A stretch of 64,000 nucleotides of DNA from Eledone cirrhosa (GCA_964016885.1 OZ024748.1:46252001-46316000), one strand, 5' to 3'. Counted from the first letter of the stretch, positions 1 to 46,178 are shown. Numbers and translations are program-made. The notes: generated from the letters alone by a model not told the origin.

Positions 1-172
1 AGAGAAGGATTTTATCGAGGTATTTACGACCGTTTCAAAATAGTGACTCACTATTTTGAAAATTTGGACGTGAACAACTATTATAATTGAGTGGCTGCTA
101 TTTGCAGTATAGCAATATAAGGTTGCACTTACCAATGAAACGGTCGTAAATACCTGGATAAAATCCTTCTCT
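1..172. mobile_element. MITE with 37-bp terminal inverted repeats, possibly PIF/Harbinger (Tourist)-like
   Basis: 1-37 AGAGAAGGATTTTATCGAGGTATTTACGACCGTTTCA matches the reverse complement of 136-172 with one mismatch. Followed by TAA (173-175); the left flank lies outside the window, so the TSD cannot be confirmed. Confidence 0.7.
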
Positions 173-216
173 TAATGCTTACCTGTGTTTTCTCTTTTAT
201 ACTATATATATATCTA

Positions 217-901
217 TATAAAGAATTAGTATATCTACCAACATATTTATACAGAAGTATACTTATGCTAGCAAGATATAGGTTTTGTCTTAGTAACTTT
301 GTGGTTCAATACAAAAATGTAGAACAATTATATGAAAGACGTAAAATAAGAAAATTATAATAATTAACTTACTTACTTAAGTTTCACTCCAACTAATTAG
401 TTTCTGAAAGGGCATATACATAGTGTTCAAAACCATGGAGAATTCCTTTCTTCATCAGGGAGTCAATTCTCTGCTAACATCCCTGGCGATAGGCGGACAC
501 AGGGATCTCAAACAAAAATAATTCAGTGAATGGAAAAGAAGCAAGCGCGGACTAAATTTCAAGACACTGAAAATTTCACTGCCTTCCCGGTCAGTGGCAA
601 ATTCAAAAGAATCAATCACGCGACATCGAGGTTAATCAGTGAGGAGTGGGGTATTAAAAAGACAGTAGCCAAAATATTACTATGAATCATAGCAGTAATT
701 CAGGCAAATTTTGGCTCAACAAATAATTTGGAGATAATTATAAAGAATTAGTATATCTACCAACATATTTATACAGAAGTATACTTATGCTAGCAAGATA
801 TATGTTTTGTCTTAGTAACTTTGTGGTTCAAAACAAAAATGTAGAACAATTATATGAAAGACGAAAAATAAGAAAATTACAATAATTAACTTACTTACTT
901 A
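217..901. repeat. 163-bp direct repeat pair (217-379 and 739-901) flanking a 359-bp unique segment
   Basis: Both copies run TATAAAGAATTAGTATATCTACC...AATTAACTTACTTACTTA with about 4 substitutions; offset 522 bp. Confidence 0.9.
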
Positions 902-983
902 TTTACTCCAGTAAACTGTTGAGTGCTCTAAATCAGTTATAAACATTTATATTTGTCGGACTTCCAACAAATTAAATACCACT

Positions 984-989
<6 letters not shown>

Positions 990-1055
<66 letters not shown>
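990..1055. repeat. (TA)n microsatellite
   Basis: Direct reading. Confidence 0.98.
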
Positions 1056-1057
<2 letters not shown>

Positions 1058-1200
1058 CAAGTTTGTTTAGAAACAGAGAGCGAGTTTGAAAATAGAAATA
1101 GAAGCTTTCGCTGTATTTTTGGCAACAGAAATCTTAGCCTGATAGTGGGGCTTAGAACCCACTAAGACATGGAATATATATATAACAAAATGTAATACAG

Positions 1201-1294
1201 AAATGGCTTCTACAGACTAGAACCGTTTCATTGGAAGGAAATCATCTGGAAAGCCCTTCGAATAAAACATTTCTAGTTCTGTAGAAGCCATTTC
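1201..1294. repeat. Inverted repeat/hairpin with ~22-bp arms (AAATGGCTTCTACAGA-CTAGAA ... TTCTAGTTCTGTAGAAGCCATTT)
   Basis: Arms 1201-1222 and ~1271-1293 are reverse complements with a 1-nt indel; weaker pairing extends ~20 bp further out. Confidence 0.8.
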
Positions 1295-1376
1295 CATATT
1301 AAATGTTGTTGTATACACTCTACCAATGTAATGAGTACCTCACTTATTGTGGGTACCCCCGATTGAACCTGGGACT

Positions 1377-1379
<3 letters not shown>

Positions 1380-1438
<59 letters not shown>
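1380..1438. repeat. (TA)n microsatellite
   Basis: Direct reading. Confidence 0.98.
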
Positions 1439-1439
<1 letters not shown>

Positions 1440-2169
1440 CTTTTATAGAGGACAATATTACAGGAAATTTTGGTGGAATTGAGGTACAATTGTTTTGTTA
1501 GCCATTTCGCTTCACTGAGGCGAGGTTCTAGTTCGTCAGCCTACATTGTAATCCGTTGTAATGGTTGAGGTCTGTTTCTTCAAATATGGAAGAGTTCCAA
1601 ATGAGATGATGTAACACATATTCCTACATAGGGAGGGTGTAGTAGGATAATATATACATTAGAAAGTAAAAGCAAGGGGGGTAATTCTATAAGTTGTTAG
1701 AGAAATAAATATAGTTTGACTTTGATGAGTTAATAGATGATAAATATTGGAGAAACATGGTATCAAAATTGTGGAAAAGAAAGAGATAATGTTTGTAGAG
1801 TGCAATGTGATTAGATGGTATCAGTAGTCAGTGGATGATATCCATGGTATCCAGAGAATTTATCCTGGTGTGGATGGTATTTTTCAGTTCTTGAGTCTAC
1901 TTTTGTAAATGTGGCGGCAGCGATTTACGAAATCTTCCCTCGTGTTCAGACAGTATGTTGTGTATCTTTTACTTTTTGGTGTACCACCATCTTTCCTTTC
2001 TACTAATCCACCAAACTATTGTTCGTCGCTCTAACTGCTTCAGCTAATTTACCAACGTTTTATAAGAACCTTATTTATAATACCCCCACGTCACAGTTTC
2101 CGAGACTGTGGCGATTCTCCCTATGTTAACTTCCATAATGAAAAATATGTTTATTTTCAATATAGACAT

Positions 2170-2345
2170 AATTAAAAAAGAAGGGGAAATAAAGGGAAAG
2201 AAAGAATAAGGAAATATAGGAAAACAAATTATAGGAAAAAAAAGAGGAGAGAAAGAAAGCAGAAAAAGATCGGGTGAAGGGAGGAGATGGCAAGAGCTCT
2301 GATGTCGCAGATGAGAGAAGAGGGGTGAAGGAGGGAGGGTGATTG
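2170..2345. repeat. Purine-rich (GA/GGA) low-complexity tract
   Basis: Strongly A/G-biased plus strand. Confidence 0.6.
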
Positions 2346-2445
2346 GGCTTTGGGCCTAGGGCAACATCTCTCTTTTCGCTCTGAATTGGGTGAACAAACA
2401 AGCAACAAACGAAGGAATATATGAATATATAAATACGAAACTTAC

Positions 2446-2763
2446 CTCTGACGAGTTGAGGGTATCGCTAGGGTGGAGATCTCTCCATGTGGCAACCAAT
2501 GCCCACGTAGCGTGGAAATTCGAAATATTTAAGCAAAGTGAGATGTCGTTTAGAAAGACTCCTTCTTCTTTGGTGCGTTGACGCATCGGGGGCCACATTT
2601 CGTAGACGTCATAAAACACGGCACTAGACGAGCGTTTCCTGGTCACTCCGTCTGCCCAAAATGGTGCAATGATTACTTCGTCATCCTCACCGACTTCTTT
2701 CTTAGGTAGCTTGTTGATTTTATATCCATCTTGTTTTATTATCAGGAAACCATCGGTGTGAAT
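2446..2763 (-). CDS. Mucin gene exon: NIDO-type domain, IHTDGFLIIKQDGYKINKLPKKEVGEDDEVIIAPFWADGVTRKRSSSAVFYDVYEMW...NFHATWALVATWRDLHPSDTLNSSE
   Basis: Acceptor TTTCCTTTTGTTTAG (AG at 2765-2764) and donor GTAAGT (from 2445). 318 bp = 106 codons, phase 0/0. Contains the IAPFWAD and F.ATWALVATW motifs characteristic of NIDO-region proteins (nidogen, MUC4, SUSD2, alpha-tectorin). Overlaps track ORF 2356..2646(-). Confidence 0.92.
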
Positions 2764-2841
2764 CTAAACAAAAGGAAAGCAGAATTGATTTTCATTTAAC
2801 GTATCTGTATGTATGTGCTAGACAGAAAGCCTGTATTTTAA

Positions 2842-3855
2842 CCATTTAGCATTTAAACCGGCCGTATCTGGCCAGAATCATCTCACCCCTTTCTGTTCAA
2901 ACCGGTTGTAACCGGCCGCTCATACTGATGTTAAGGTTTTGTTCTCAAAATAAATAACATCAACATCATGTAGCTTAAATATTATGAGAGATATTATGTA
3001 AAATTAACACGAAAATACAATAGTATATATAGAGTAGTGTAGATGTTATGTGAGATATTATGTAAGATAAAGCCTTTACCATGAAAATACAATAGTATAT
3101 AGAGACTAATGTAAATGTTATGTGAGATAACTATGTAAGCTAAAGCCTTTACCATGAAAATACAATAGTATATATAGAGTAATGTAAATGTTATGTGAGA
3201 TAACTATGTAAGGTAAAGCCTTTACCATGAAAATACAATAGTATATAGAGAGTAATGTAAATGCTATGTGAGATAACTATGTAAGATAAAGCCTTTACCA
3301 GGAAAATACAATAGTATATAGAGAGTAATGTAAATGTTATGTGAGATAACTATGTAAGATAAAGCCTTTACCATGAAAATACAATAGTATATAGAGAGTA
3401 ATGTAAATGTTATGTGAGATAACTATGTAAGATAAAGCCTTTACCATGAAAATACAATAGTATATATAGAGTAATGTAAATGTTATGTGGGATAACTATG
3501 TAAGGTAAAGCCTTTACCATGAAAATACAATAGTATATATAGAGTAATGTAAATGTTATGTGGGATAACTATGTAAGGTAAAGCCTTTACCATGAAAATA
3601 CAATAGTATATATAGAGTAATGTAAATGTTATATGAGATAACTATGTAAGATAAAGCCTTTACCATGAAAATACAATAGTATATAGAGAGTAATGTAAAT
3701 GTTATGTGGGATAACTATGTAAGGTAAAGCCTTTACCATGAAAATACAATAGTATATATAGAGTAATGTAAATGTTATATGAGATAACTATGTAAGATAA
3801 AGCCTTTACCATGAAAATACAATAGTATATATAGAGTAATGTAAATGCTAAGGGG
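2842..3855. mobile_element. Non-autonomous piggyBac-like DNA transposon (TTAA target-site duplication, ~14-bp TIRs) carrying an internal minisatellite
   Basis: TTAA(2838-2841)-CCATTTAGCATTTA ... TAAATGCTAAGGGG-TTAA(3856-3859); TIRs match 12/14; CC...GG ends within TTAA are the piggyBac signature; no transposase ORF. Confidence 0.75.
2985..3848. repeat. 73-bp minisatellite, about 12 copies
   Basis: GCCTTTACC recurs at 3072, 3145, 3218, 3291, 3364, 3437, 3510, 3583, 3656, 3729 and 3802, plus a degenerate first unit. Confidence 0.95.
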
Positions 3856-4276
3856 TTAACATAGGAGTGAGATATCTTGCATAAGTGTACATCTTTTGGG
3901 GACAAGTTTTGGGGCAAGTTTATTCTTAACTCTTCGGAGTTCCAAAGGACCTTGATTTATATGGTTTGAACCGGGTCTGTCGCCTAGATGGGAGTAGGGG
4001 TCACTGGTTGACATTACCTAACTTCTTTACACTGACGTAGCCTCGGGTTTAGAAAACAGAATTTATAAAACGTGTCCTGAAATAAGGTCTCTCAACTCTT
4101 GACATTACTAACATGTTTTCACACAGGAACAAAGAATAAAAATCGAAGGTAAAAAGAGCCAAAACAATAAACGCGAAGCATTTTCTTCGAGGCTCTACAG
4201 ATTTTGTCAGTTCACCGCTTTCATTCTTTATGAATAGTGAAGCGCCCCCTTTCTTGTGCCGCCAAAAAATAATTGT

Positions 4277-4455
4277 TTCTACCTTTGGCACAAGGCCAGC
4301 AATTACTCAAGTACATTACTGGTAATTTATTTTATCGACTCCGTAAGGATGAAAGGGAAAGTTAACCTCGACGGGATTTGACCTCAGACCATAAAGGGAC
4401 GTAACTATGCTGGAAAGCATGGCGTCCGACCCTCTACCGATACTGCCAATTCACC
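4277..4455 (-). mobile_element. tRNA-derived SINE, resembling Octopus SINE families
   Basis: Minus strand starts GGTGAATTGGCAGTATCGGTAGAG (A-box-like) with a B-box-like GAGGTCAAATCCC. The body (plus CTGGTAATTTATTTTATCGACTCCGTAAGGATGAAAGGGAAAGTTAACCTCG) resembles, from memory, abundant octopod SINEs; not database-checked. Confidence 0.7.
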
Positions 4456-4513
4456 TGATAAAGAACAGATGGAAGAAGAGTAGGGAAGGAGAAAGTAGAG
4501 GCTTATCACTTAC

Positions 4514-4656
4514 CCAAATCCGTTTCCAAACAGTATCCTTTGATACCATAGCTGGGAACCCTACTTCACATATGATCGGGTCACTGATGACGTCATCACC
4601 TTTAATGAGCCTCTTAGACAGTCCGGCGTTGGTGGACGACCCATATGGTAAAAGTC
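4514..4656 (-). CDS. Mucin gene exon: start of NIDO-type domain, (R)LLPYGSSTNAGLSKRLIKGDDVISDPIICEVGFPAMVSKDTVWKRIW
   Basis: Polypyrimidine tract plus CAG acceptor (TTTCTCTCTTCTTCAACCAG, AG at 4658-4657) and GTAAGT donor (4513-4508). 143 bp = 2 nt + 47 codons, in frame with the phase-1 upstream donor. The LxPYG...GDD..S.PI...FP pattern is typical of the lead-in to NIDO domains. Confidence 0.88.
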
Positions 4657-4720
4657 CTGGTTGAAGAAGAGAGAAACAAAAAAATATAATACAAAAACAT
4701 TGCTTTACTGACCGAATAAG

Positions 4721-4722
<2 letters not shown>

Positions 4723-4788
<66 letters not shown>
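4723..4788. repeat. Compound (TA)n(TG)n microsatellite
   Basis: Direct reading. Confidence 0.97.
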
Positions 4789-5388
4789 CCGTGTCTAAGT
4801 GTTGAAAAATAATGCCAAATTCTGCTAACTATATCATATTTGAATTTACACATGTTTCATCCTTAATATAAGTGTTCCACAGAATTAAATAAGATATAAC
4901 TACCTGGAATACAACATTCCGTCCAATAATACATCATACCAGAGCATTGTTCACATTTTAAAGAAAGACTGCATCATACTAGGAACTAGTACTTATCACG
5001 AGAATCACAAATATAATTATTCACATAGGCTCCCAAAGAAAAGTTATTCACAGGGACCCCCAAACGAATAAGCACACATTATATGAATATTCTAATCATA
5101 GTTATAAGCAATATATCTTTTTTACACAATAAATTCAGTATGTGTGTGTGTGAATATAATCACACACACAAACAAATGTGTATATATATAAATATGCATG
5201 TGTGAAGTAAAAACATCTACACAATAATTCAAATAACACCACAGACTACAAAAAAATGGCGATGGAGAATAAAAAGCAAATGCCCAAGATACAGTTCGGA
5301 AACGGAGTGTGTAAGCAAAGGTCAGGAATAAATAGAGTACATTTCAAAGAACACACCTATATGAGCGAATATATAATTCTACACTTAC

Positions 5389-8300
5389 GGATTCTAGGAA
5401 AGGGAGTCGTTGTCTTCAGTACTTCTGTTGTAATAGTGGTGGGCACGGTTGTGGTTGTTATTGGTATAGTGGTTGTTATTGGTAATGTAGTGGTGGTTGT
5501 TGGTAGTGTAGAGGTGGTTGTTGGTAGTGTAGTGTTGGTAGTTGGTAGTGTAGTGGTTGTTCTTGGTAGTGTAGTGGTTGTTGTTGGTAGTGTAGTGTTG
5601 GTAGTTGGTACTGTAGTGGTTGCTGTCGGTAGTGTAGTGGTTGCTGTTGGTAGTGTAGTGGTGGTTGTTGGTAGTGTAGTGGTTGCTGTTGGTTGTGTAG
5701 TGGTTGTTGTTGGTAGTGTAGTGGCTGCTGTTGGTAGTGTAGTGGTTGTTGTTGGTAGTGTAGTGGTTGTTGTTGGTAGTGTAGTGGTGGTTGTTGGTAG
5801 TGTAGTGGTTGCTGTTGGTAGTGTAGTGGTTGTTGTTGGTAGTGTAGTGGTTGTTGTTGGTAGTGTAGTGGTTGTTGTTGATAGTGTAGTGGCTGCTGTT
5901 GGTAGTGTAGTGGTTGTTGTTGGTAGTGTAGTGGTTGTTGTTGGTAGTGTAGTGGTGGTTGTTGGTAGTGTAGTGGTTGCTGTTGGTAGTGTAGTGGTTG
6001 TTGTTGGTAGTGTAGTGGTTGTTGTTGATAGTGTAGTGGGTGCTGTTGGTAGTGTAGTGGTTGTTATTGGTAGTGTAGTGGTTGTTGTTGGTAGTGTAGT
6101 GGTTGTTGTTGGTATTGTAGTGGTTGTTGTTGGTAGTGTAGTGGTTATTGTTGTTGGTAGTGTAGTGGTTGTTGTTGGTAGTGTAGTTGTTGTTGTTGGT
6201 AGTGTAGTTGTTGTTATTGGTAGTGTAGTTGTTGTTGTTGGTAGTGTAGTGGTGGTTGTTGGTAGTGTAGTGGTTGTTGTTGGTAGTGTAGTGGTTGTTG
6301 TTGGTAGTGTAGTGGTTGTTGTTGGTAGTGTAGTGGTTGTTGTTGGTAGTGTAGTGGTTGTTGTTGGTAGTGTAGTGGTTGTTGTTGGTAGTGTAGTAGT
6401 TGTTGTTGGTAGTGTAGTGGTTGTTGTTGGTAGTGTAGTAGTTGTTGTTGGTAGTGTAGTGGTTGTTGTTGGTAGTGTAGTGGTGGTTGTTGGTAGTGTA
6501 GTGGTGGTTGTTGTTGGTAGTGTAGTGGTTGTTGTTGGTAGTGTAGTGGTTGTTGTTGGTAGTGTAGTGGTTGTTGTTGGTAGTGTAGTGGTTGTTGTTG
6601 TTGGTAGTGTAGTGGTTGTTGTTGGTAGTGTAGTGGTGGTTGTTGTTGTTAGTGTAGTGGTTGTTGTTGGTAGTGTAGTGGTTGTTGTTGGTAGTGTAGT
6701 GGTTGTTGTTGGTAGTGTAGTGGTTGTTGTTGGTAGTGTAGTGGTGGTTGTTGGTAGTGTAGTGGTTGTTGTTGGTAGTGTAGTGGTTGTTGTTGGTAGT
6801 GTAGTGGTTGTTGTTGGTAGTGTAGTGGTGGTTGTTGTTGGTAGTGTAGTGGTTGTTGTTGGTAGTATAGTGGTGGTTGTTGTTGGTAGTGTAGTGGTTG
6901 TTGTTGGTAGTGTAGTGGTTGTTGTTGGTAGTGTAGTGGTTGTTGTTGGTAGTGTAGTGGTTGTAGTTGGTAGTGTAGTGGTGGTTGTTGGTAGTGTAGT
7001 GGTTGTTGTTGGTAGTGTAGTGGTTGTTGTTGGTAGTGTAGTGGTTGTTGTTGGTAGTGTAGTGGTGGTTGTTGTTGGTAGTGTAGTGGTTGTTGTTGGT
7101 AGTGTAGTGGTTGTTGTTGGTAGTGTAGTGGTTGTAGTTGGTAGTGTAGTGGTGGTTGTTGGTAGTGTAGTGGTTGTTGTTGGTAGTGTAGTGGTTGTTG
7201 TTGGTAGTGTAGTGGTTGTTGTTGGTAGTGTAGTGGTTGTAGTTGGTAGTGTAGTGGTGGTTGTTGGTAGTGTAGTGGTTGTTGTTGGTAGTGTAGTGGT
7301 TGTTGTTGGTAGTGTAGTGGTTGTTGCTGTTGGTAGTGTAGTGGTTGTTGTTGGTAGTGTAGAGGTGGTTGTTGGTAGTGTAGTGTTGGTAGTTGGTAGT
7401 GTAGTGGTTGTTCTTGGTAGTGTAGTGGTTGTTGTTGGTAGTGTAGAGGTAGTTGTTAGTACTGTAGTGGTTGCTGTCGGTAGTGTAGTGGTGGTTGTTG
7501 GTAGTGTAGTGGTTGTTGTTGGTAGTGTAGAGGTAGTTGTTGGTAGTGTAGTGGTGGTTGTTGGTAGTGTAGTGGTTGTTGTTGGTAGTGTAGTGGTGGT
7601 TGTTGTTGGTAGTGTAGTGGTTGTTGTTGGTAGTGTAGTGGTTGTTGTTGGTAGTGTCGTGGTGGTTGTTGTTGGTAGTGTAGTGGTTGTTGTTGGTAGT
7701 GTAGTGGTTGTTGTTGGTAGTGTAGTGGTGGTTGTTGTTGGTAGTGTAGTGGTTGTTGTTGGTAGTGTAGTGGTTGTAGTTGGTAGTGTAGTGGTTGTTG
7801 TTGGTAGTGTAGTGGTTGTTGTTGGTAGTGTAGTGGTTGTTGTTGGTAGTGTAGTGGTTGTTGTTGGTAGTGTAGTGGTTGTTGTTGGTAGTGTAGTGGT
7901 TGCTGTTGGTAGTGTAGTGGTTGTTGTTGGTAGTGTAGTGGTGGTTGTTGTTGGTAGTGTAGTGGTTGTTGTTGGTAATGTAGTGGTTGTTGTTGGTAGT
8001 GTAGTGGTTGTTGTTGGTAGTGTAGTGGTTGCTGTTGGTAGTGTAGTGGTTGTTCTTGGTAGTGTAGTGGTTGTTGTTGGTAGTGTAGTGGTGGTTGTTG
8101 TTGGTAGTGTAGTGGTTGTTGTTGGTAGTGTAGTGGTTGTTGTGGGTAGTGTAGTGGTTGTTGTTGGTAGTGTAGTGGTTGTTGTTGGTAGTGTAGTGGT
8201 TGTAGTAGGTAGTGTAGTGGTGGTTGTTGGTAGTGTAGTGGTTGTTGTTGGTAGTGTAGTGGTTGTTGTTGGTAGTGTAGTGGTGGTTGTTGTTGGTAGT

Positions 8301-11300
8301 GTAGTGGTTGTTGTTGGTAGTGTAGTGGTTGTTGTTGGTAGTGTAGTGGTTGTAGTTGGTAGTGTAGTGGTGGTTGTTGGTAGTGTAGTGGTTGTTGTTG
8401 GTAGTGTAGTGGTTATTGTTGGTAGTGTAGTAGTTGTTGTTGTTGGTAGTGTAGTGGTTGTTGTTGGTAGTGTAGTGGTTGTTGTTGGTAGTGTAGTGGT
8501 CGTTGTTGGTAGTGTAGTGGTTGCTGTTGGTAGTGTAGTGGTTGTTGTTGGTAGTGTAGTGGTTGTTGTTGGTAGTGTAGTGGTTGTTGTTGTTGGTAGT
8601 GTAGTGGTTGTTGTTGGTAGTGTAGTAGTTGTTGTTGTTGGTAGTGTAGTGGTTGTTGTTGTTGGTAGTGTAGTGCTTGTTGTTGGTAGTGTTGTGGATG
8701 TTGTTGGTAGTGTAGAGGTAGTTGTTGTTAGTGTAGTTGTTGTTGTTGTTGGTAGTGTAGTGGTTGTTGTTGGTAGTGTAGTGGTTGTTGTTGGTAGTGT
8801 AGTGGTCGTTGTTGGTAGTGTAGTGGTTGCTGTTGGTAGTGTAGTGGTTGTTGTTGGTAGTGTAGTGGTTGTTGTTGGTAGTGTAGTGGTTGTTGTTGTT
8901 GGTAGTGTAGTGGTTGTTGTTGCTATTGTAGTGATTGTTGTTGGTAGTGTAGTGGTTGTTGGTAGTGTAGTGGTGGTTGCTGGTAGTGTAGAGGTTGTTG
9001 TTGGTAGTGTAGTGGTTGTTGTTGGTATTGTAGTGATTGTTGTTGGTAGTGTAGTGGTTGTTGGTAGTGTAGTGGTGGTTGTTGGTAGTGTAGTGGTTGT
9101 TGTTGGTAGTGTAGTGGTTGTTGGTAGTGTAGTGGTGGTTGTTGGTAGTGTAGTGGTTGTTGTTGGTAGTGTAGTGGTGGTTGTTGTTGGTAATGTAGTG
9201 GTTGTTGTTGGTAGTGTAGTGGTTGTTGTTGGTAGTGTAGGGGTTGTTATTGGTAGTGTAGTGGTGGTTGTTGGTAGTGTAGTGGTTGTTGTTGGTAGTG
9301 TAGAGGTTGTTGTTGGTATTGTAGTGGTTGTTTTTGGTAGTGTAGTGGTTGTTGTTGGTATTGTAGTGGTTGTTGTTGGTAGTGTAGTAGTGGTTGTTGG
9401 TAGTGTAGTGGTTGTTGTTAGTAGTGTAGTGGTTGTTGTTGGTAGTGTAGTGGTTGTTGTTGGTAGTGTAGTGGTGGTTGTTGGTAGTGTAGTGGTTGTT
9501 GTTGGTAGTGTAGTTGTTGTTGTTGGTAGTGTAGTGGTTGTTGTTGGTAGTGTAGTGGTTGTTGTTGGTAGTGTAGTGGTGGTTGTTGGTAGTGTAGAGT
9601 TTGTTGTTGGTAGTGTAGTGGTGGTTGTTGGTAGTGTAGTGGTGGTTGTTGGTAGTGTAGTGGTTGTTGTTGGTAGTGTAGTGGTGGTTGTTGGTAGTGT
9701 AGTGGTTGTTGGTAGTGTAGTCGTTGATGTCGGTAGTGTAGTGGTTGTTGTTGGTAGTGTAGAGGTTGTTGTTGGTAGTGTAGAGGTTGTTGTTGTTGGT
9801 AGTGTAGTGGTTGTTGTTGGTATTGTAGTGGTGGTTGTTGGTAGTGTAGTGGTTGTTGTTGGTAGTGTAGTGGTTGTTGGTAGTGTAGTGGTGGTTGTTG
9901 GTAGAGTAGTGGTTGTTGTTGGTAGTGTAGTGGTTGTTGGTAGTGTAGTGGTGGTTGTTGATAGTGTAGTGGTTGTTGTTGGTAGTGTAGTGGTTGTTGT
10001 TGGTAGTGTAGTGGTTGTTGTTGTTAGTGTAGTAGTGGTTGTTGGTAGTGTAGTGGTTGTTGTTGGTAGTGTAGTGGTTGTTGTTGGTAGAGTAGTGGTG
10101 GTTTTTGGTAGTGTAGTGGTTGTTGATGGTATTGTAGTGGTTGTTATTGGTAGTGAAGTGGTTGTTGTTGGTAGTGTAGTGGTTATTGTTGGTAGTGTAG
10201 TAGTTGTTGTTGTTGGTAGTGTAGTGGTTGTTGTTGGTAGTGTAGTGGTTGTTGTTGGTAGTGTAGTGGTCGTTGTTGGTAGTGTAGTGGTTGCTGTTGG
10301 TAGTGTAGTGGTTGTTGTTGGTAGTGTAGTGGTTGTTGTTGGTAGTGTAGTGGTTGTTGTTGTTGGTAGTGTAGTGGTTGTTGTTGGTAGTGTAGTAGTT
10401 GTTGTTGTTGGTAGTGTAGTGGTTGTTGTTGTTGGTAGTGTAGTGCTTGTTGTTGGTAGTGTTGTGGATGTTGTTGGTAGTGTAGAGGTAGTTGTTGTTA
10501 GTGTAGTTGTTGTTGTTGTTGGTAGTGTAGTGGTTGTTGTTGGTAGTGTAGTGGTTGTTGTTGGTAGTGTAGTGGTCGTTGTTGGTAGTGTAGTGGTTGC
10601 TGTTGGTAGTGTAGTGGTTGTTGTTGGTAGTGTAGTGGTTGTTGTTGGTAGTGTAGTGGTTGTTGTTGTTGGTAGTGTAGTGGTTGTTGTTGCTATTGTA
10701 GTGATTGTTGTTGGTAGTGTAGTGGTTGTTGGTAGTGTAGTGGTGGTTGCTGGTAGTGTAGAGGTTGTTGTTGGTAGTGTAGTGGTTGTTGTTGGTATTG
10801 TAGTGATTGTTGTTGGTAGTGTAGTGGTTGTTGGTAGTGTAGTGGTGGTTGTTGGTAGTGTAGTGGTTGTTGTTGGTAGTGTAGTGGTTGTTGGTAGTGT
10901 AGTGGTGGTTGTTGGTAGTGTAGTGGTTGTTGTTGGTAGTGTAGTGGTGGTTGTTGTTGGTAATGTAGTGGTTGTTGTTGGTAGTGTAGTGGTTGTTGTT
11001 GGTAGTGTAGTGGTTGTTATTGGTAGTGTAGTGGTGGTTGTTGGTAGTGTAGTGGTTGTTGTTGGTAGTGTAGAGGTTGTTGTTGGTATTGTAGTGGTTG
11101 TTTTTGGTAGTGTAGTGGTTGTTGTTGGTATTGTAGTGGTTGTTGTTGGTAGTGTAGTAGTGGTTGTTGGTAGTGTAGTGGTTGTTGTTAGTAGTGTAGT
11201 GGTTGTTGTTGGTAGTGTAGTGGTTGTTGTTGGTAGTGTAGTGGTGGTTGTTGGTAGTGTAGTGGTTGTTGTTGGTAGTGTAGTTGTTGTTGTTGGTAGT

Positions 11301-14300
11301 GTAGTGGTTGTTGTTGGTAGTGTAGTGGTTGTTGTTGGTAGTGTAGTGGTGGTTGTTGGTAGTGTAGAGTTTGTTGTTGGTAGTGTAGTGGTGGTTGTTG
11401 GTAGTGTAGTGGTGGTTGTTGGTAGTGTAGTGGTTGTTGTTGGTAGTGTAGTGGTGGTTGTTGGTAGTGTAGTGGTTGTTGGTAGTGTAGTCGTTGATGT
11501 CGGTAGTGTAGTGGTTGTTGTTGGTAGTGTAGAGGTTGTTGTTGGTAGTGTAGAGGTTGTTGTTGTTGGTAGTGTAGTGGTTGTTGTTGGTATTGTAGTG
11601 GTGGTTGTTGGTAGTGTAGTGGTTGTTGTTGGTAGTGTAGTGGTTGTTGGTAGTGTAGTGGTGGTTGTTGGTAGAGTAGTGGTTGTTGTTGGTAGTGTAG
11701 TGGTTGTTGGTAGTGTAGTGGTGGTTGTTGATAGTGTAGTGGTTGTTGTTGGTAGTGTAGTGGTTGTTGTTGGTAGTGTAGTGGTTGTTGTTGTTAGTGT
11801 AGTAGTGGTTGTTGGTAGTGTAGTGGTTGTTGTTGGTAGTGTAGTGGTTGTTGTTGGTAGAGTAGTGGTGGTTTTTGGTAGTGTAGTGGTTGTTGATGGT
11901 ATTGTAGTGGTTGTTATTGGTAGTGAAGTGGTTGTTGTTGGTAGTGTAGTGGTGGTTGTTGGTAGTGTAGTGGTGGTGTTTGGTAGTGTAGTGGTTGATG
12001 TTGGTAGTGTAGTGGTTGTTGTTGGTAGTGTAGTGGTTGTTGTTGGTAGTGTAGTGGTTGTTGTTGGTGGTGTAGTGGTCGTTGCTAGTACTGTACTGGT
12101 TGTTGGTAGTGTTGGTTCTGTTGTTGTTGGTAGTGTTGGTTCTGTTGTTGTTGGTGTTGGTTCTTTTGTTGTTGGTAGTGTTGGTTCTATTGTTGGTAGT
12201 GTTGGTTCTTTTGTTGTTGGTAGTGTTGTTTCTGTTGTTGTTGGTAGTGTTGGTTCTGTTGTTGTTATTGTTGTTGGTTCTGTTGTTGTTGTTGTTGCTG
12301 TTGGTAGTATTGGTTCTGTTGTTGTTGGTAGTGTTGGTTCTGTTGTTGGTAGTGTTGTTTCTGTTGTTGTTGGTAGTGTTGGTTCTGTTGTTGTTGTTGT
12401 TGTTGTTGTTGATTCTGTTGTTGTTGTTGTTGGTGGTAGTATTGGTTCTGTTGTTGTTGGTAGTGTTGGTTCAGTTGTTGGTAGTGTTGGTTCTGTTGTT
12501 GTTGGTAGTGCTGGTTCTGTTGTTGTTGGTAGTGTTGGTTCTGTTGTTGTTGGTAGTGTCGGTTCTGTTGTTGTTGGTCGTGTTGGTTCTGTGGTTGTTG
12601 GTAGTGTTGGTTCTGTTGTTGTTGGTAGTGCTGGTTCTGTTGTTGTTGGTAGTATTGTTCCTGTTGTTGTTGGTAGTGATTGTTCTATTGTTGTTGGTAG
12701 TGTTGTTTCTCTTGTTGTTGGTAGTGTTGGTTCTGTGGTTGTTGTTAGTGTTGGTTCTGTGGTTGTTGGTAGTGTTGGCTCAGTTGTTGTTGATAGTGTT
12801 GGTTCTGTTGTTGTTGGTAGTATTGTTCCTGTTGTTGTTGGTAGTGATTGTTCTATTGTTGTTGGTAGTTTTGTTTCTCTTGTTGTTGGTAGTGTTGGTT
12901 CTGTGGTTGTTGGTAGTGTTGGTTCTGTGGTTGTTGGTATTGTTTGTTCTGTTGTTGTTGGTAGTTTTGGTTCTGCTGTTGTTGGTACGGTTGGTTCTGT
13001 TGTTGCTGGTAGTGTTGGTTCTGTGGTTTTTGGTAGTGTTTGTTCTGTTGTTGTTGGTAGTGTTGGTTCTGTTGTTGTTGGTAGTGTTGGTTCTGCTGTT
13101 GTTGGTAGTGTTGGTTCTGTTGTTGTTGGTAGTGTTGGTTCTGTGGTTGTTGGTAGTGTTTGTTCTGTTGTTGTTGGTAGTGTTTGTTCTGTTGTTGTTG
13201 GTAGTGTTGGTAGTGTTGGTTCTGTTGTTGTTGTTAGTGTTGGTTCTGTGGTTGTTGGTAGTGTTTGTTCTGTTGTTGTTGTTGGTGGTGTTGGTTCTGT
13301 TGTTGTTGGTAGTGTTGGTTCTGTGGTTGTTGGTAGTGTTGGTTCTGTTGTTGTTGGTAGTGTTGGTTCTGTGGTTGTTGTTGGTGGTGTTGGTTCTGTT
13401 GTTGTTGGTAGTGTTGGTTCTGTGGTTGTTGGTAGTGATGGTTCTGTTGTTAGTAGTGTTGGTTCTGTTGTTGTTGGTAGTGTTGGTTCTGTTGTTGTTG
13501 GTAGTGATGGTTCTGTTGTTAGTAGTGTTGGTTCTGTTGTTGTTGGTAGTGTTGGTTCTGTGGTTGTTGGTAGTGTTGGTTCTGTTGTTGTTGGTAGTGT
13601 TGGTTCTGTGGTTGTTGGTAGTGTTGGTTCTGTTGTTGTTGGTAGCGTTGGTTCTGTGGTTGTTGGTAGTGTTGGTTCTGTTGTTGTTGGTAGTGTTGGT
13701 TCTGTTGTTGTTGGTAGTATTGGTTCTGTTGTTGTTGGTAGTGTTGGTTCTGTTGTTGTTGGTAGCGGTGGTTCTGTGGTTGTTGGTAGTGTTGGTTCTG
13801 TTGTTGTTGGTAGTGTTGGTTCTGTTGTTGTTGGTAGTGTTGGTTCTGTGGTTGTTGGTAGTGTTGGTTCTGTTGTTGTTGTTGGTAGTGTTGGTTCTGT
13901 TGTTGTTGGTAGTGTTGGTTCTGTTGTTGTTGGGAGTGTTGGTTCTGTTGTTGTTGGTAGTGTTGGTTCTGTTGTTGTTGTTGGTAGTGTTGGTTCTGTT
14001 GTTGTTGGTAGTGTTGGTTCTGTTGTTGTTGGTAGTGTTGGTTCTGTTGTTGTTGGGTGTGTTGGTTCTGTTGTTGTTGGTAGTGTTGGTTCTGTTGTTG
14101 TTGTTAGTGGTGTTGGTTCTGTTAGTGTTGGTAGTGTTGGTTCTTTTGTTGTTGTTGGTAGTGTTGGTTCTGTTGTTGTTGGTAGTGTTCGTTCTGTTGT
14201 TGTTGTTGGTAGTGTTGGTTCTGTTGTTATTGGTAGTGTTGGTTCTGTTGTTGTTGGTAGTGTTGGTTCTGTTGTTATTGTTGGTAGTGTTGTTGTTGGT

Positions 14301-17300
14301 AGTGTTGGTTCTGTTGTTGTTGTTGGTAGTGTTGGTTCTGTTGTTGTTGGTAGTGTTGGTTCTGTTGTTGTTGGGAGTGTTGGTTCTGTTGTTGTTGGTA
14401 GTGTTGCTTCTGTTGTTGTTGTTGGTAGTGTTGGTTCTGTTGTTGGTGGTAGTGTTGGTTCTGTTGTTGTTGGTAGTGTTGGTTCTGTTGTTGTTGGTAG
14501 TGTTGGTTCTGTTGTTGTGTTTGGTTGTGTTGGTTCTGTGGTTGTGTTTGGTAGTGTTGGTTCTGTGGTTGTTGGTAGTGTTGGTTCTGTTGCTGTTGTT
14601 GGTAGTGTTGGTTCTGTTGTTGTTGGTAGTGTTGGTTCTATTGTTGTTGGGAGTGTTGGTTCTGTTGTTGTTGGTAGTGTTGGTTCTGTTGTTGTTGTTG
14701 GTAGTGTTGGTTCTGTTGTTGTTGGTAGTGTTGGTTCTGTTGTTGTTGGTAGTGTTGGTTCTGTTGTTGTTGGGAGTGTTGGTTCTGTTGTTGTTGGTAG
14801 TGTTGGTTCTGTTGTTGCTGTTGGTGGTGTTGGTTCTGTTAGTGTTGGTAGTGTTGGTTCTTTTGTTGTTGTTGGTAATGTTGGTTCTGTTGTTGTTGGT
14901 AGTGTTCGTTCTGTTGTTGTTGTTGGTAGTGTTGGTTCTGTTGTTGTTGGTTGTGTTGGTTCTGTTGTTGTTGCTAGTGTTGGTTCTGTTGTTATTGGTA
15001 GTGTTGGTTCTGTTGTTGTTGGTAGTGTTGGTTCTGTTGTTATTGGTAGTGTTAGTTCTCTTGTTGTTCTTGGTAGTGTTGGTTCTGTTGTTGTTGGTAG
15101 TGTTGGTTCTGTTGTTGTTGGTAGTATTGGTTCTGTTGTTGTTGTTGGTAGTGTTGGTAGTGTTGTTGTTGGTAGTGTTGATTCTGTTCTTGTTGTTGGT
15201 AGTGTTGGTTCTGTTGTTGTTGGTAGTGTTGGTTCTGTTGTTGTTGGTAGTGTTGGTTCTGTTGTTGTTGGTAGTGTTTGTTCTGTTGTTGTTGGTAGTG
15301 TTTGTTCTGTTGTTGTTGGTAGTGTTGGTTCTGTTGTTGTTGGTAGTGTTGGTTCTTTTGATGTTGTTGATAGTGATGGTTCTGTTGTTGTTGGTAGTAT
15401 TGGTTCTGTTGTTGTTGTTAGTGGTGTTGGTTCTGTTAGTGTTGGTAGTGTTGGTTCTTTTGTTGTTGTTGGTAGTGTTGGTTCTGTTGTTGTTGGTGGT
15501 GTTCGTTCTGTTGTTGTTGTTGGTAGTGTTGGTTCTGTTGTTATTGGTAGTGTTGGTTCTGTTGTTGTTGGTAGTGTTGGTTCTGTTGTTATTGTTGTTG
15601 TTGGTAGTGTTGGTTCTGTTGTTGTTGTTGGTAGTGTTGGTTCTGTTGTTGTTGGTAGTGTTGGTTCTGCTGTTGTTGGGAGTGTTGGTTCTGTTGTTGT
15701 TGGTAGTGTTGCTTCTGTTGTTGTTGTTGGTAGTGTTGGTTCTGTTGTTGGTGGTAGTGTTGGTTCTGTTGTTGTTGGTAGTGTTGGTTCTCTTGTTGTT
15801 GTTGGTAGTGTTGGTTCTGTTGTTGTGTTTGGTTGTGTTGGTTCTGTGGTTGTGTTTGGTAGTGTTGGTTCTGTGGTTGTTGGTAGTGTTGGTTCTGTTG
15901 CTGTTGTTGGTAGTGTTGGTTCTGTTGTTGTTGGTAGTGTTGGTTCTGTGGTTGTTGGTAGTGTTGGTTCTGTTGCTGTTGTTGGTAGTGTTGGTTCTGT
16001 TGTTGTTGGTAGTGTTGGTTCTGTTGTTGTTGGGAGTGTTGGTTCTGTTGTTGTTGGTAGTGTTGGTTCTGTTGTTGTTGGGAGTGTTGGTTCTGTTGTT
16101 GTTGGTAGTGTTGGTTCTGTTGTTGTTGTTGGTGGTGTTGGTTCTGTTAGTGTTGGTAGTGTTGGTTCTTTTGTTGTTGTTGGTAATGTTGGTTCTGTTG
16201 TTGTTGGTAGTGTTCGTTCTGTTGTTGTTGTTGGTAGTGTTGGTTCTGTTGTTGTTGGTTGTGTTGGTTCTGTTGTTGTTGGTTGTGTTGGTTCTGTTGT
16301 TGTTGCTAGTGTTGGTTCTGTTGTTATTGGTAGTGTTGGTTCTGTTGTTGTTGGTAGTGTTGGTTCTGTTGTTATTGGTAGTGTTAGTTCTCTTGTTGTT
16401 GTTGGTAGTGTTGGTTCTGTTGTTCTTGGTAGTGTTGGTTCTGTTGTTGTTGGTAGTATTGGTTCTGTTGTTATTGGTAGTGTTTGTTCTGTTGTTGTTG
16501 TTGGTAGTGTTGGTAGTGTTGTTGTTGGTAGTGTTGGTTCTGTTCTTGTTGTTGGTAGTGTTGGTTCTGTTGTTGTTGGTAGTGTTGGTTCTGTTGTTGT
16601 TGGTAGTGTTGGTTCTGTTGTTGTTGGTTGTGTTTGTTCTGTTGTTGTTGGTAGTGTTTGTTCTGTTGTTGTTGGTAGTGTTGGTTCTGTTGTTGTTGGT
16701 AGTGTTGGTTCTTTTGATGTTGTTGATAGTGATGGTTCTGTTGTTGTTGTTAGTGTTGGATCTGCTGCTGTTGTTGGTACTGTTGGTTCTGTTGTAGTAG
16801 GTAGTGATGGTTCTGTTGTTGTTTGTAGTGTTGGTTTTGCTGTTGTTGTTGGTAGTGTTGGTTCTGTTCTTGTTGTTGGTAGTTGTGGTTCTGTTGTTGT
16901 TGTTAGTGTTGGTTCTATTGTTGTTGGTAATGTTGGTTCTGTTGTTGTTGGTAGTGTTGGTTCTGTTGTTGTTGGTAGGATTGGTTCTGTTGTTATTGGT
17001 AGTGTTGGTTCTGTTGTTGTTGTTGGTAGTATTGGTAGTGTTGTTGTTGGTAGTGTTGGTTCTGTTCTTGTTGTTGGTAGTGTTGGTTCTGTTGTTGTTG
17101 GTAGTGTTGGTTCTGTTGTTGTTGGTAGTGTTGGTTCTGTTGTTGTTGGTAGTGTTTGTTCTGTTGTTGTTGGTAGTGTTGCTTCTGTTGTTATTGGTAG
17201 TGTTGTTTCTTTTGATGTTGTTGATAGTGATGGTTCTGTTGTTGTTGTTAGTGTTGGATCTGCTGTTGTTGTTGGTAGTTTTGCTTCTGTTGTAGTATGT

Positions 17301-20300
17301 AGTGATGGTTCTGTTGTTGTTGGTAGTGTTGGTTTTGCTGTTGTTGTTGGTAGTGTTGGTTCTGTTGTTGTTGTTGGTAGTTGTGGTTCTGGTGTTGTTG
17401 TTAGTGTTGGTTCTATTGTTGTTGGTAATGTTGGTTCTGTTGTTGTTGGTAGTGTTGGTTCTGTTGTTGTTGGGAGTGTTGGTTCCGTTGTTGTTGGTAG
17501 TGTTGCTTCTGTTGTTGTTGTTGGTAGTGTTGGTTCTGTTGTTGGTGGTAGTGTTGGTTCTGTTGTTGTTGTTGGTAGTGTTGGTTCTGTTGTTGTGTTT
17601 GGTTGTGTTGGTTCTGTGGTTGTGTTTGGTAGTGTTGGTTCTGTGGTTGTTGGTAGTGTTGGTTCTGTTGCTGTTGTTGGTAGTGTTGGTTCTGTTGTTG
17701 TTGGTAGTGTTGGTTCTGTTGTTGTTGGGAGTGTTGGTTCTGTTGTTGTTGGTAGTGTTGGTTCTGTTGTTGTTGTTGGTAGTGTTGGTTCTGTTGTTGT
17801 TGGTAGTGTTGGTTCTGTTGTTGTTGGTAGTGTTGGTTCTGTTGTTGTTGGGAGTGTTGGTTCTGTTGTTGTTGGTAGTGTTGGTTCTGTTGTTGTTGTT
17901 GGTGGTGTTGGTTCTGTTAGTGTTGGTAGTGTTGGTTCTTTTGTTGTTGTTGGTAATGTTGGTTCTGTTGTTGTTGGTAGTGTTCGTTCTGTTGTTGTTG
18001 TTGGTAGTGTTGGTTCTGTTGTTGTTGGTTGTGTTGGTTCTGTTGTTGTTGCTAGTGTTGGTTCTGTTGTTATTGGTAGTGTTGGTTCTGTTGTTGTTGG
18101 TAGTGTTGGTTCTGTTGTTGTTGTTGGTAGTTGTGGTTCTGGTGTTGTTGTTAGTGTTGGTTCTATTGTTGTTGGTAATGTTGGTTCTGTTGTTGTTGGT
18201 AGTGTAGGTTCTGTTGTTGTTGGTAGTGTTGGTTCTGTTGTTGTTGGTAGTGTTGGTTCTGTTGTTGTTGGTATTGTTGGTTCTGTTGTTGTTAGTATTG
18301 TTGGTTCTGTTGTTGCTAATGTTGTTTCTGTTGTTGTTTGTAGTGTTGGTTCTGTTGTTGTTGGTAGTGTTGGTTCTGTTGTTGTTGTTGGTAGCGTTGG
18401 TTCTGTTGTTGTAGGTAGTGTTGGTTCTGTTGTTGTTGGTAGTGTTGGTTCTGTTTTTGTTGGGAGTGTTGGTTCTGTTTTTGTTGGTATTGATGGTTCT
18501 GTTGTTGTTGGTAGTGTTGGTTCTGTTGTTGTTGGTAGTGTTGGTTCTGTTGTTGTTGGTAGTGATTGTTCTATTGTTGTTGGTATTGTTGTTTCTGTTG
18601 TTGTTGGTAGTGCTGGTTTTGTTGTTGTTTGTAGTGTTGGTTCTGTTGTTGTTGTTGGTAGTGTTGGCTCTGTTGTTATGGGTAGTGTTGGCTCTGTTGT
18701 TGTTGGTAGTGATGGTTCTGTTGTTGTTGTTGGTAGTGTTGGTTCTGTTGTTGTTGTTGGTAGCTTTGGTTCTGTTATTGGTAGTGTTGGTTCTGTTGTT
18801 GTTGTTAGTGTTGGTTCTGCTGATGTTGTTAGTGGTGGTTCTGTTGTTGTTGGTAGTGTTGGTTCTGTTTTTGTGGGTAGTGTTGGTTCTGTTGTTGTTG
18901 GTAATGATGGTTCTGTTGTTGTTGGTAGTGTTGGTTCTGCTGATGTTGTTAGTGGTGGTTCTGTTGTTGTTGGTAGTGTTGGTTCTGTTCTTGTTTGTAG
19001 TGTTGGTTCTGTTGTTGTTGGTAATGATGGTTCTGTTGTTGTTGGTAGTGTTGGTTCTGTTGTTGTTGTTGGTAGTATTGGTTCTGTTGTTGTTGGTAGT
19101 TTTGGATCTGTTGTTGTTGTTAGTGTTGGTTCTGTCGTTGTTGGTAGTGTTTGTTCTGTTGTTGTTGGAAGTGTTGGTTCTGTTGTTGTTGGTAGTGTTG
19201 GTTCTGTTGTTGTTGGTAGTGTTGGTTCTGTTGTTGTTGGTAGTGTTGGTTCTGTTGTTGTTGGTAGTGTTGGTTCTGTTGTTGTTGTTGGTAGTGTTGG
19301 TTCTGTTGTTGTTGGTAGTGTTTGTTCTGTTGTTGTTGGAAGTGTTGGTTCTGTTGTTGTTGGTAGTGTTGGTTCTGTTGTTGTTGGTAGTGTTGGTTCT
19401 GTTGTTGTTGGTAGTGTTTGTTCTGTTGTTGTTGGTAGTGATGGTTCTGTTGTTGGTGGTAGTGTTGGTTCTGTTGTTGTTGGTAGTGTTGGTTCTGTTG
19501 TTGTTGGTAGTGTTTGTTCTGTTGTTGTTGGTAGTGATGGTTCTGTTGTTGTTGGTAGTGTTGGTTCTGTTGTTGTTGGTAGTGTTGGTTCTGTTGTTGT
19601 TGTTGGTAGTGTTGGTTCTGTTGTTGTTGGTAGTGTTTGTTCTGTTGTTGTTGGAAGTGTTGGTTCTGTTGTTGTTGGTAGTGTTGGTTCTGTTGTTGTT
19701 GGTAGTGTTGGTTCTGTTGTTGTTGGTAGTGCTGGTTCTGTTGTTGTTGGTAGTGTTGGTTCTGTTGTTGTTGGTAGTGCTGGTTCTGTTGTTGTTGGTA
19801 GTGTTGGTTCTGTTGTTGTTGGTCGTGTTGGTTCTGTTGTTGTTAGTAGTGTTGGTTCTGTTGTTGTTGGTAGTGTTGGTTCTGTTGTTGTTGGTAGTGT
19901 TGGTTCTGTTGTTGTTGGTAGTGTTGGTTCTGTTGTTGTTGTTGGTAGTGTTGGTTCTGTTGTTGTTGTTGGTAGTGTTGGTTCTGTTGTTGTTGCTAGT
20001 GTTGGTTCTGTTGTTGTTAGTAGTATTGGTTCTGTTGTTGTTGGTAGTGTTGGTTCTGTTTTTGTTGGTAGTGTTGGTTCTGTTGTTGTTGGTAGTTTTG
20101 TTTCTGTTGTTGTTGTTGGTAGTGTTGGTTCTGTTGTTGTTGTTGGTAGTGTTGGTTCTGTTGTTGTTGGTAGTGTTGGTTCTGTTGTTGTTGGTAGTGT
20201 TGGTTCTGTTGTTGTTGGTAGTGTTGGTTCTGTTGTTGTTGTTGGTAGTGTTGGTTCTGTTGTTGTTGGTAGTGTTGGTTCTGATGTTGTTGGTAGTGTT

Positions 20301-45978: not shown

Positions 45979-46178
45979 NNNNNNNNNNNNNNNNNNNNNN
46001 NNNNNNNNNNNNNNNNNNNNNNNNNNNNNNNNNNNNNNNNNNNNNNNNNNNNNNNNNNNNNNNNNNNNNNNNNNNNNNNNNNNNNNNNNNNNNNNNNNNN
46101 NNNNNNNNNNNNNNNNNNNNNNNNNNNNNNNNNNNNNNNNNNNNNNNNNNNNNNNNNNNNNNNNNNNNNNNNNNNNNN
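45979..46178. other. Assembly gap (200 N) inside the mucin repeat region
   Basis: Run of exactly 200 N; the round length suggests a placeholder, and it produces an apparent frameshift between the two coding segments. Confidence 0.99.

Follow-up and report, generated by a model that had tools for sequence, protein, structure and literature searches.

How long can a single coding exon of an animal be? The question is raised by a gene of the octopus Eledone cirrhosa, in which a Thr-rich tandem repeat is joined to exons encoding a NIDO domain. The window analysed here is a stretch of 64,000 nucleotides (nt) from the 3.0-Gb genome (GCA_964016885.1 OZ024748.1:46252001-46316000, here G000:C8:46252001-46316000); positions are counted from its first letter, and coordinates outside the window are extended on the same scale. 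The gene lies on the minus strand, and the repeat occupies the window from 5451 to its right edge. We consider it likely that the locus is an intact spliced gene and that the repeat forms one exon of at least 82 kb, probably of about 135 kb; the predicted protein would comprise about 29,000 amino acids (aa) from the scaffold alone and about 47,000 aa if an unplaced contig, C1368, belongs to the gene. A preliminary description of the window had drawn attention to the MUC4-like architecture and missed the real oddity, which is the size of the repeat exon.

The gene opens with a signal-peptide exon of 58 nt (88439-88382, with the ATG at 88439), which ends in phase 1 and encodes MILRYLDKTSLLLTCILTNVLIIPKSYA, judged by eye to be a signal peptide. 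The repeat exon begins at the acceptor TAATACAG at 87499 (G000:C8:46339499), also in phase 1, and its first 2.4 kb or so are unique coding sequence rich in Ser and Thr; the repeat itself reaches to about 85,100, and the exon closes at 5389 before the donor GTAAGT. From 87499 to 5389 it spans 82,111 bases, including a 200-N scaffold gap (45979..46178) whose two sides differ in repeat type. The upper part (minus strand, 46179..64000 and past the window to 87499) consists of neutral TTTTTLP units, with TTTTTQP and TNTT variants near the gap, and holds 41,321 nt or 13,773 codons without a stop. The lower part (5389..45978, minus strand) is built of acidic TTTEPTLP units from 45978 to about 12300 and of TTTTTLP units over the final 7 kb, followed by a short unique tail with TTPFPRI at the phase-1 donor; its 40,590 nt (13,529 codons) are likewise stop-free. 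The stalk is zoned neutral, acidic, neutral. The other frames contain 117-161 stops in the upper part and 14-160 in the lower part, the longest frame among 50 local shuffles was 541 codons, and 2,703 of 2,707 anchor spacings are multiples of 3. Since triplet-like repeats hold frame by slippage alone, the unique stretches provide better frame evidence: the 5' unique part has 0, 48 and 64 stops in its three frames, and a non-repetitive coding island within the exon (51260..52260, minus strand), in frame with the flanking repeats, has none in frame and 28 and 26 in the other two, with a full-length genome match nowhere but this locus. The composition of the exon is 74-80% Pro, Thr and Ser (PTS), with 16,200 Thr/Ser residues in the scaffolded part and 26,425 when C1368 is counted. 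The sense strand, in which A accounts for about half of the bases and C for 40%, contains three donor-like sites in the upper part and none in C1368 or the lower part, against 123 in a 27-kb control from the gene's introns; for acceptor-like sites the counts are one, zero and zero against 38. A non-coding satellite was considered and rejected on account of the signal exon, the splice sites and the stop-free unique parts.

Downstream of the repeat, all on the minus strand, a 732-bp GT-AG intron in phase 1 (4657..5388) leads to a pre-NIDO exon of 143 nt (4514..4656, phase 1 to 0, LLPYG...KRIW), and a 1,750-bp GT-AG intron in phase 0 (2764..4513) leads to the first NIDO exon of 318 nt (2446..2763, phase 0 to 0); the next intron (1..2445) runs out of the window, and the gene goes on leftward for about 130 kb. 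The consistent phases and intron lengths given in the preliminary description were confirmed on re-reading the minus strand. The junction C|GA is a split Arg codon, and this Arg with the following 47 and 106 residues yields the stop-free spliced peptide of 154 aa. The presence of NIDO after the repeat exon also held, as the exon at 2763-2446, which has a single match in the genome, matches Pfam NIDO (PF06119) at E 4.1e-8 (33.9 bits, cut-off 25); the 47-aa pre-NIDO exon alone gave no Pfam match. The two exons are 83% (pre-NIDO) and 78% (NIDO) identical to Octopus bimaculoides XP_052830075, and O. bimaculoides models make the identical join across the 1,750-bp intron. In sequencing run X4, one contig with a depth of 3 contains the pre-NIDO exon and jumps exactly 732 bases at the joint with the repeat exon, its short side being 38 letters long; this only observed joint uses the donor of the repeat exon, in agreement with the direct splice proposed earlier. 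The type of run X4 is not on record, and we infer it to be RNA because exons are covered and introns almost not; run X1, in which intron cover is even, was taken as genomic, and the joint skipping 732 bp was not found in it. Four rows of sequencing runs were listed for the NIDO exon, none of them on record as RNA, and the lack of X4 cover over the signal exon and the 5' unique part is a blank that carries no evidential weight. In the O. bimaculoides model A0A0L8G4Q7, a Thr-rich stretch runs into the pre-NIDO exon at the matching point (TTPFPRIK, then LLPFG). A processed copy as the origin of the spliced joint was rejected, given its absence from X1 and the single genomic locus. Separately, the 1,750-bp intron carries a 73-bp minisatellite (3004-3847, 11.6 copies, 95% matches), and a direct duplication of about 150 bp was seen by eye in intron sequence at about 220-380 and 743-900.

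A genome search with a flank of the coding island led to C1368 (G000:C1368:1-53445, minus strand), which is one stop-free Thr-rich frame from end to end, with 17,815 codons and no N. The contig begins in the variant units found at the end of the upper half and, near 31.5 kb, changes to the acidic units with which the lower half begins; as this switch of repeat block exists on C1368 alone, part of the contig must lie in the gap. When rare 36-mers were compared in 3-kb bins, its first bins matched the last upper bin best among the scaffold bins (21-29%), and its last bin shared 42% with the first lower bin. Three of four repeat-variant patterns are confined to C8 and C1368, and the fourth is confined to C8. 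The longest exact matches of C1368 to the two halves are 215 and 172 bp, and its end-to-end identities with the gap edges are 93.6% and 95.3%, compared with 93.4-96.3% between neighbouring blocks within a contig (four controls, local alignment). On the basis of these repeat patterns, we conclude that C1368 probably fills the gap, at least in part. Upper part, C1368 and lower part together amount to 135,356 bases or 45,117 codons, to which the other exons add 5,774 bases, giving about 47,000 aa, a figure that is a floor if more sequence is missing from the gap. The full proposal is that C1368 fills the gap, that the exon of 135,356 bases or more is retained whole in the transcript, and that translation gives a membrane mucin of some 47,000 aa; the coding exon would then be the largest, and the protein the longest, yet reported from an animal. 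This proposal is tentative, and we rate its prospects at somewhat short of even.

Left of the window the exons continue in phase through NIDO, AMOP-type, vWD, C8, EGF, SEA-like and transmembrane (TM) exons, so that the exon KNTFQAVLVTDG and the AMOP-type, vWD (with GDPH), EGF and TM exons predicted in the preliminary description were all found there, each on the minus strand. The second NIDO exon (C8:46248943-46249150; Pfam NIDO E 8.5e-9, over cut-off) joins directly to the first of two AMOP-type exons, one of which reaches Pfam AMOP at E 0.028 (15 bits, cut-off 25); position and Cys pattern fit this domain, and bird and chimaera MUC4 likewise lack Pfam AMOP at E 0.001. A vWD exon with GDPH at its start (C8:46244193-46244450; Pfam VWD E 5e-4, 20.9 bits against a cut-off of 22.9 for the first exon alone) is followed by a MUC4-type C8 domain (C8-3_MUC4, E 2.9e-10, 39.7 bits, cut-off 25), an Ig-like stretch, and 14 EGF exons in phase that encode about 16 EGF-like modules. 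Downstream of these lie two three-exon SEA-like units, which resemble SEA in their position, with a Ser/Thr exon of 662 nt between them (G000:C8:46141311-46141972, phase 2 to 1) whose omission keeps the reading frame, and then a short Cys module and the phase-compatible TM exon with its hydrophobic stretch (C8:46122525-46122654), after which a last tail exon was looked for and not found. Three single SEA-like exons gave no Pfam match; against a profile of 86 SEA-like segments the two units scored 6.6 and 1.6 bits (best of 1,000 shuffles, 8.5), a profile-profile comparison gave a probability of 12.8% (P 0.002), the top Atlas matches were SEA at 0.77-0.78, which we treat as a lead only, and a single-sequence fold of a SEA-like unit yielded two helices at an unusable predicted template-modelling score (pTM) of 0.34. 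Overall, the gene model is 76% identical to XP_052830075 over 1,371 columns. A Protein Data Bank (PDB) search with the O. bimaculoides orthologue returned EGF matches only, in 14 sequences.

Family membership was examined through a database search of 1.84 billion representatives, in which 257 proteins fell under E 1e-30, 150 of them among the matches listed. GDPH is retained by 148 of 163 homologues with the core, and 30 of the 163 have at least 100 PTS residues before NIDO, as against 0 of 12 scored rows in the Mesh/SUSD2 clade. Trees were built with FastTree on 157 rows and then with IQ-TREE on 35 rows (LG+G4 without a mixture, root assumed); the 35-row subset, which holds no insect, cnidarian or human row, and the groups for the approximately unbiased (AU) test were picked after viewing the 157-row tree, and P0136 and a paralogue at C6:100.7 Mb, each under half filled, were excluded. 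The tree splits, with support of 100/99, into a Mesh/SUSD2 group of 8 rows, including an octopus gene on C7 and caecilian SUSD2, and an EGF-bearing group of 27 rows that comprises vertebrate MUC4 (from lamprey to gopher), echinoderms, amphioxus, Trichoplax, nemerteans, molluscs and the E. cirrhosa gene, so that both sides hold octopus and vertebrate genes. This placement on the MUC4 side speaks against one of the two origins offered earlier, an independently mucinised NIDO protein, and in favour of the other, a deep homolog. Placing the giant-exon gene as the exclusive sister of vertebrate MUC4 was also rejected (AU p 0.0075). Its next relative after the octopus orthologues is the chiton protein (94/93). 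As the sequence trees place it, the giant-exon gene is a deep homolog of MUC4, not a one-to-one orthologue, in a family that appears to have expanded separately in each lineage. It combines a signal peptide and PTS sequence before NIDO, NIDO, vWD with GDPH and C8, EGF modules and a TM helix, and grouping on the MUC4 side; the three EGF modules without SEA and the one-to-one orthology of strict mammalian MUC4 are absent, as are the Mesh/SUSD2 hallmarks of TIG between NIDO and AMOP, Sushi, and grouping with Mesh.

Several points weigh against reading the locus as an intact gene with one giant exon. Its read support is one depth-3 contig from one study with no run type on record, and that contig extends into just the final ~200 bases of the repeat exon; frame retention in ACA-like triplet repeats, which slippage alone can maintain, counts for less than it does in the two unique stretches; AMOP and SEA score under their Pfam cut-offs; and an exon linking the first SEA-like unit (which ends in phase 1) to the 662-nt exon (which starts in phase 2) was not found. 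Moreover, no exact overlap of C1368 with either gap edge was found, so that the contig can be placed by inference only, and the sequence still missing might conceal an intron. The same lack of end overlap would suit an arrangement in which C1368 derives from the other haplotype as a diverged copy and in part overlaps the scaffold, or in which the gap hides an intron, leaving one exon of about 99 kb or more (a worst-case overlap estimate) or two exons of at least 41 kb. A higher-order unit of about 2.3-2.5 kb does recur where C1368 ends and where the lower half begins, and mucin alleles can differ by tens of kilobases (the MUC12 range being 55 kb; PMC13345508). However, no parallel stripe was found in the rare 36-mer matrix, which shows 0-4% where a duplicate of the lower half would fall, the junction identities are no higher than those of within-contig neighbours, and no splice-like sites lie near the gap edges, which makes this arrangement unlikely. 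Inflation of the array by mis-assembly of a simple repeat, with a much shorter true exon, is very improbable: the gap and the unplaced contig show that the assembler struggled, and only 41% of 60-mers are unique, yet the longest exact internal duplicate is 447 bp, similarity falls off with distance along the array, and the 135 kb contain no frameshift.

The remaining alternatives concern the transcript and the ancestry of the gene. MUC4/Y is a splice form produced by exon-2 skipping; in a comparable way, the giant exon, although real as DNA, could be skipped or shortened in most transcripts, and the protein would then have about 1,900 aa. A direct splice from the signal exon to the pre-NIDO exon would preserve the reading frame, the phases of the giant exon being a symmetric 1-1; the RefSeq model XP_052830075 lacks the repeat; and upper part, C1368 and lower part together contain 18 poly(A) hexamers. 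These observations are countered by the one observed joint, which uses the repeat exon's donor, and by the two unique stretches, both stop-free in frame, since selection for that needs translation. We therefore regard predominant skipping or shortening as improbable. As to ancestry, a Mesh/SUSD2-type junction protein that independently gained a mucin repeat in octopus would share NIDO-AMOP-vWD and would suit a repeat unit that has no counterpart even in O. bimaculoides, but this origin is largely refuted, and scarcely credible, given that grouping the giant-exon gene with Mesh is rejected (AU p 1.8e-7), that no TIG or Sushi domain was found in the orthologue XP_052830075, that C7 carries a distinct gene of Mesh/SUSD2 type, and that PTS sequence before NIDO is distributed among the homologues as described above. 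Set against these alternatives, one intact exon of at least 82 kb in a mucin-4-like gene is the reading that we retain.

Comparison with known systems indicates that what is new here is the size of the exon and of the predicted protein, and that family and architecture are already known. As in vertebrate MUC4, a signal peptide in exon 1 is followed by a large exon 2 that opens with unique sequence before its tandem repeat (PMC2360313; PMC5354666), the unique start measuring 2.8 kb in human MUC4 and about 2.4 kb in E. cirrhosa; NIDO, a putative AMOP, vWD with GDPH, EGF and TM are held in common, as is the side of the Mesh/SUSD2 split. The two differ in repeat unit (Thr units of 7-8 aa against the 16-aa unit of MUC4), in exon length (82 to 135 kb against 27,843 bp for the longest human MUC4 allele; PMC13345508) and in the C-terminal part, where about 16 EGF modules and two SEA-like units stand against three EGF modules and, in the excerpted accounts, no SEA in mammalian MUC4. 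Human MUC12, the gene with the largest human coding exon, reaches 23,080 aa (PMC13345508), and PKZILLA-1 has 45,212 aa spread over 17 exons (bioRxiv 2024.01.29.577497); those sizes are backed by population or proteomic support, whereas the E. cirrhosa size is predicted from genome sequence. Predicted bacterial proteins reach 85,804 aa (bioRxiv 2023.11.21.568195), so that any size record would apply to animals or eukaryotes only.

In an older survey, Xenopus was the deepest animal credited with a Muc4-like protein (PMC4948705); cnidarian ones were found in later work, whose excerpts do not address the Mesh/SUSD2 split. Mucin4-like genes with NIDO-AMOP-vWD, some with SEA, have been described in corals and anemones (PMC4890752; PMC9080433), so the architecture of the E. 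cirrhosa gene is of a known kind; the MUC4-like domain chain noted in the preliminary description thus stands, and its surprise at finding it in an invertebrate does not, mucin-4-like genes being annotated in O. vulgaris as well. Invertebrate mucin-4-like proteins (among them O. bimaculoides XP_052830075 and A0A0L8G4Q7, chiton P0006, Trichoplax RDD42220 and Argonauta GAB1599636) share the NIDO-AMOP-vWD core, EGF arrays, a variable PTS region and, in some cases, C-terminal SEA and TM. Across the 163 homologues the PTS region before NIDO reaches at most 1,829 aa, against 27,302 to 45,117 aa in the E. cirrhosa gene, a contrast that may be overstated because database models are often truncated at such exons. 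The O. bimaculoides models represent the orthologue (76-81% identical); XP_052830075 begins at the pre-NIDO exon without signal and repeat exons, both it and A0A0L8G4Q7 stray at the C-terminus and lack TM, and the repeat tail differs between the octopus species save for the final TTPFPRI. Mesh/SUSD2 proteins share NIDO, a putative AMOP, vWD with GDPH, and C8; they differ in carrying TIG and Sushi domains while lacking a PTS or EGF array (as in Lingula Mesh), and in forming the separate 100/99 clade. The skin-mucus proteome of O. vulgaris lists a protein under the name "mucin-4-like" (PMC11431876), and a search of the open-access literature brought up no account of an octopus gene or exon like the present one.

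The E. cirrhosa genome contains six or more EGF-type members of the family; in four paralogues of the giant-exon gene, NIDO is preceded by a phase 1-1 Thr/Ser exon, with lengths of 165, 1,671, 5,727 and 128,751 nt. The longest of these, on C6 (G000:C6:95772572-95901322), is a gap-free exon of 42,916 codons without a stop, followed by a phase 1-0 pre-NIDO exon, NIDO, AMOP, vWD (GDPH), EGF and TM, for a total of about 43,900 aa. Its sequence is a mosaic of many repeat types, with 35% PTS, 859 N-glycan sequons and 438 donor-like sites, in contrast to the C8 giant exon, which is nearly pure Thr/Pro with 74-80% PTS and three donor-like sites. The C6 paralogue groups with nemertean proteins and the C8 gene with the chiton protein, and from these different subclades it follows that the two exon expansions were likely independent.

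Further members were recorded elsewhere in the genome. A tandem paralogue on the same strand lies about 100 kb downstream of the giant-exon gene (G000:C8:45977000-46026000); only the 165-nt Thr-rich exon was found before its NIDO, its tail consists of alternating duplicated EGF exons, and it is closest to Argonauta GAB1599636. A tandem mucin-4-like pair at G000:C4:350123000-350252000 carries the phase 1-1 repeat exons of 5,727 and 1,671 nt and is orthologous to the O. vulgaris "mucin-4-like" proteins CAI9724667 and CAI9724672. At G000:C6:100643244-100657231, at least 11 EGF exons, with one peptide recurring every 1,398-1,399 bp, form an array that extends past the analysed stretch and lies upstream of a further gene with NIDO and AMOP, at 100.71 Mb. 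The Mesh/SUSD2-type gene (G000:C7:6232000-6337000), with NIDO, TIG-like, AMOP, vWD and Sushi-like domains, is suited to serve as an outgroup within the genome. Additional NIDO-bearing loci lie at C28:97.6-97.7 Mb, C4:259.02 Mb and C21:8.556 Mb, the last with no vWD and no long PTS frame within 70 kb.

By analogy with known mucins, the product is likely a mucin that is anchored in the membrane and bears a glycosylated stalk of extreme length. The signal peptide would send the chain into the secretory path, where O-glycosylation of 16,200 to 26,425 Thr/Ser residues could produce a bottle-brush stalk; mucin stalks extend by 0.25 nm per residue, which would give a length of about 7 to 11 micrometres. 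For MUC4, the predicted length is 2.12 micrometres (PMC2360313; PMC5354666). Self-cleavage at GDPH may then leave a stalk-NIDO-AMOP subunit held on a vWD-EGF-SEA-TM anchor, and the product could form a thick, lubricating and anti-adhesive epithelial coat whose stalk can be shed into mucus; skin, mucus and egg coat were named as candidate sites in the preliminary description. The ErbB2 binding of mammalian MUC4 is not ascribed to the product. The A/C-rich sense strand is almost without cryptic splice or polyadenylation sites, so that the repeat could presumably grow by whole codons with the exon unbroken. In vertebrates, C-rich large exons are included through SRSF3 (PMC9825244), a mechanism whose universality is doubted in the excerpted source and which serves here as a lead only.

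The locus thus offers a concrete, testable candidate for the upper limit of animal exon and protein length; if the full proposal is true, the C8 exon and protein would exceed titin and PKZILLA-1, and two different mucin-4-like genes would have passed 120 kb independently, by two different sequence strategies. With a phase 1-1 slot that ranges from 165 nt to 129-135 kb in one genome, the family would provide a natural series for studying the definition, export and translation of giant exons. Annotation drops such exons, as in the RefSeq orthologue that starts at the pre-NIDO exon, and assemblies leave their pieces unplaced. According to the tree, MUC4 represents the vertebrates within an ancient family of EGF-bearing proteins that includes a Trichoplax member, and the split of this family from Mesh/SUSD2 would predate the parting of protostomes and deuterostomes.

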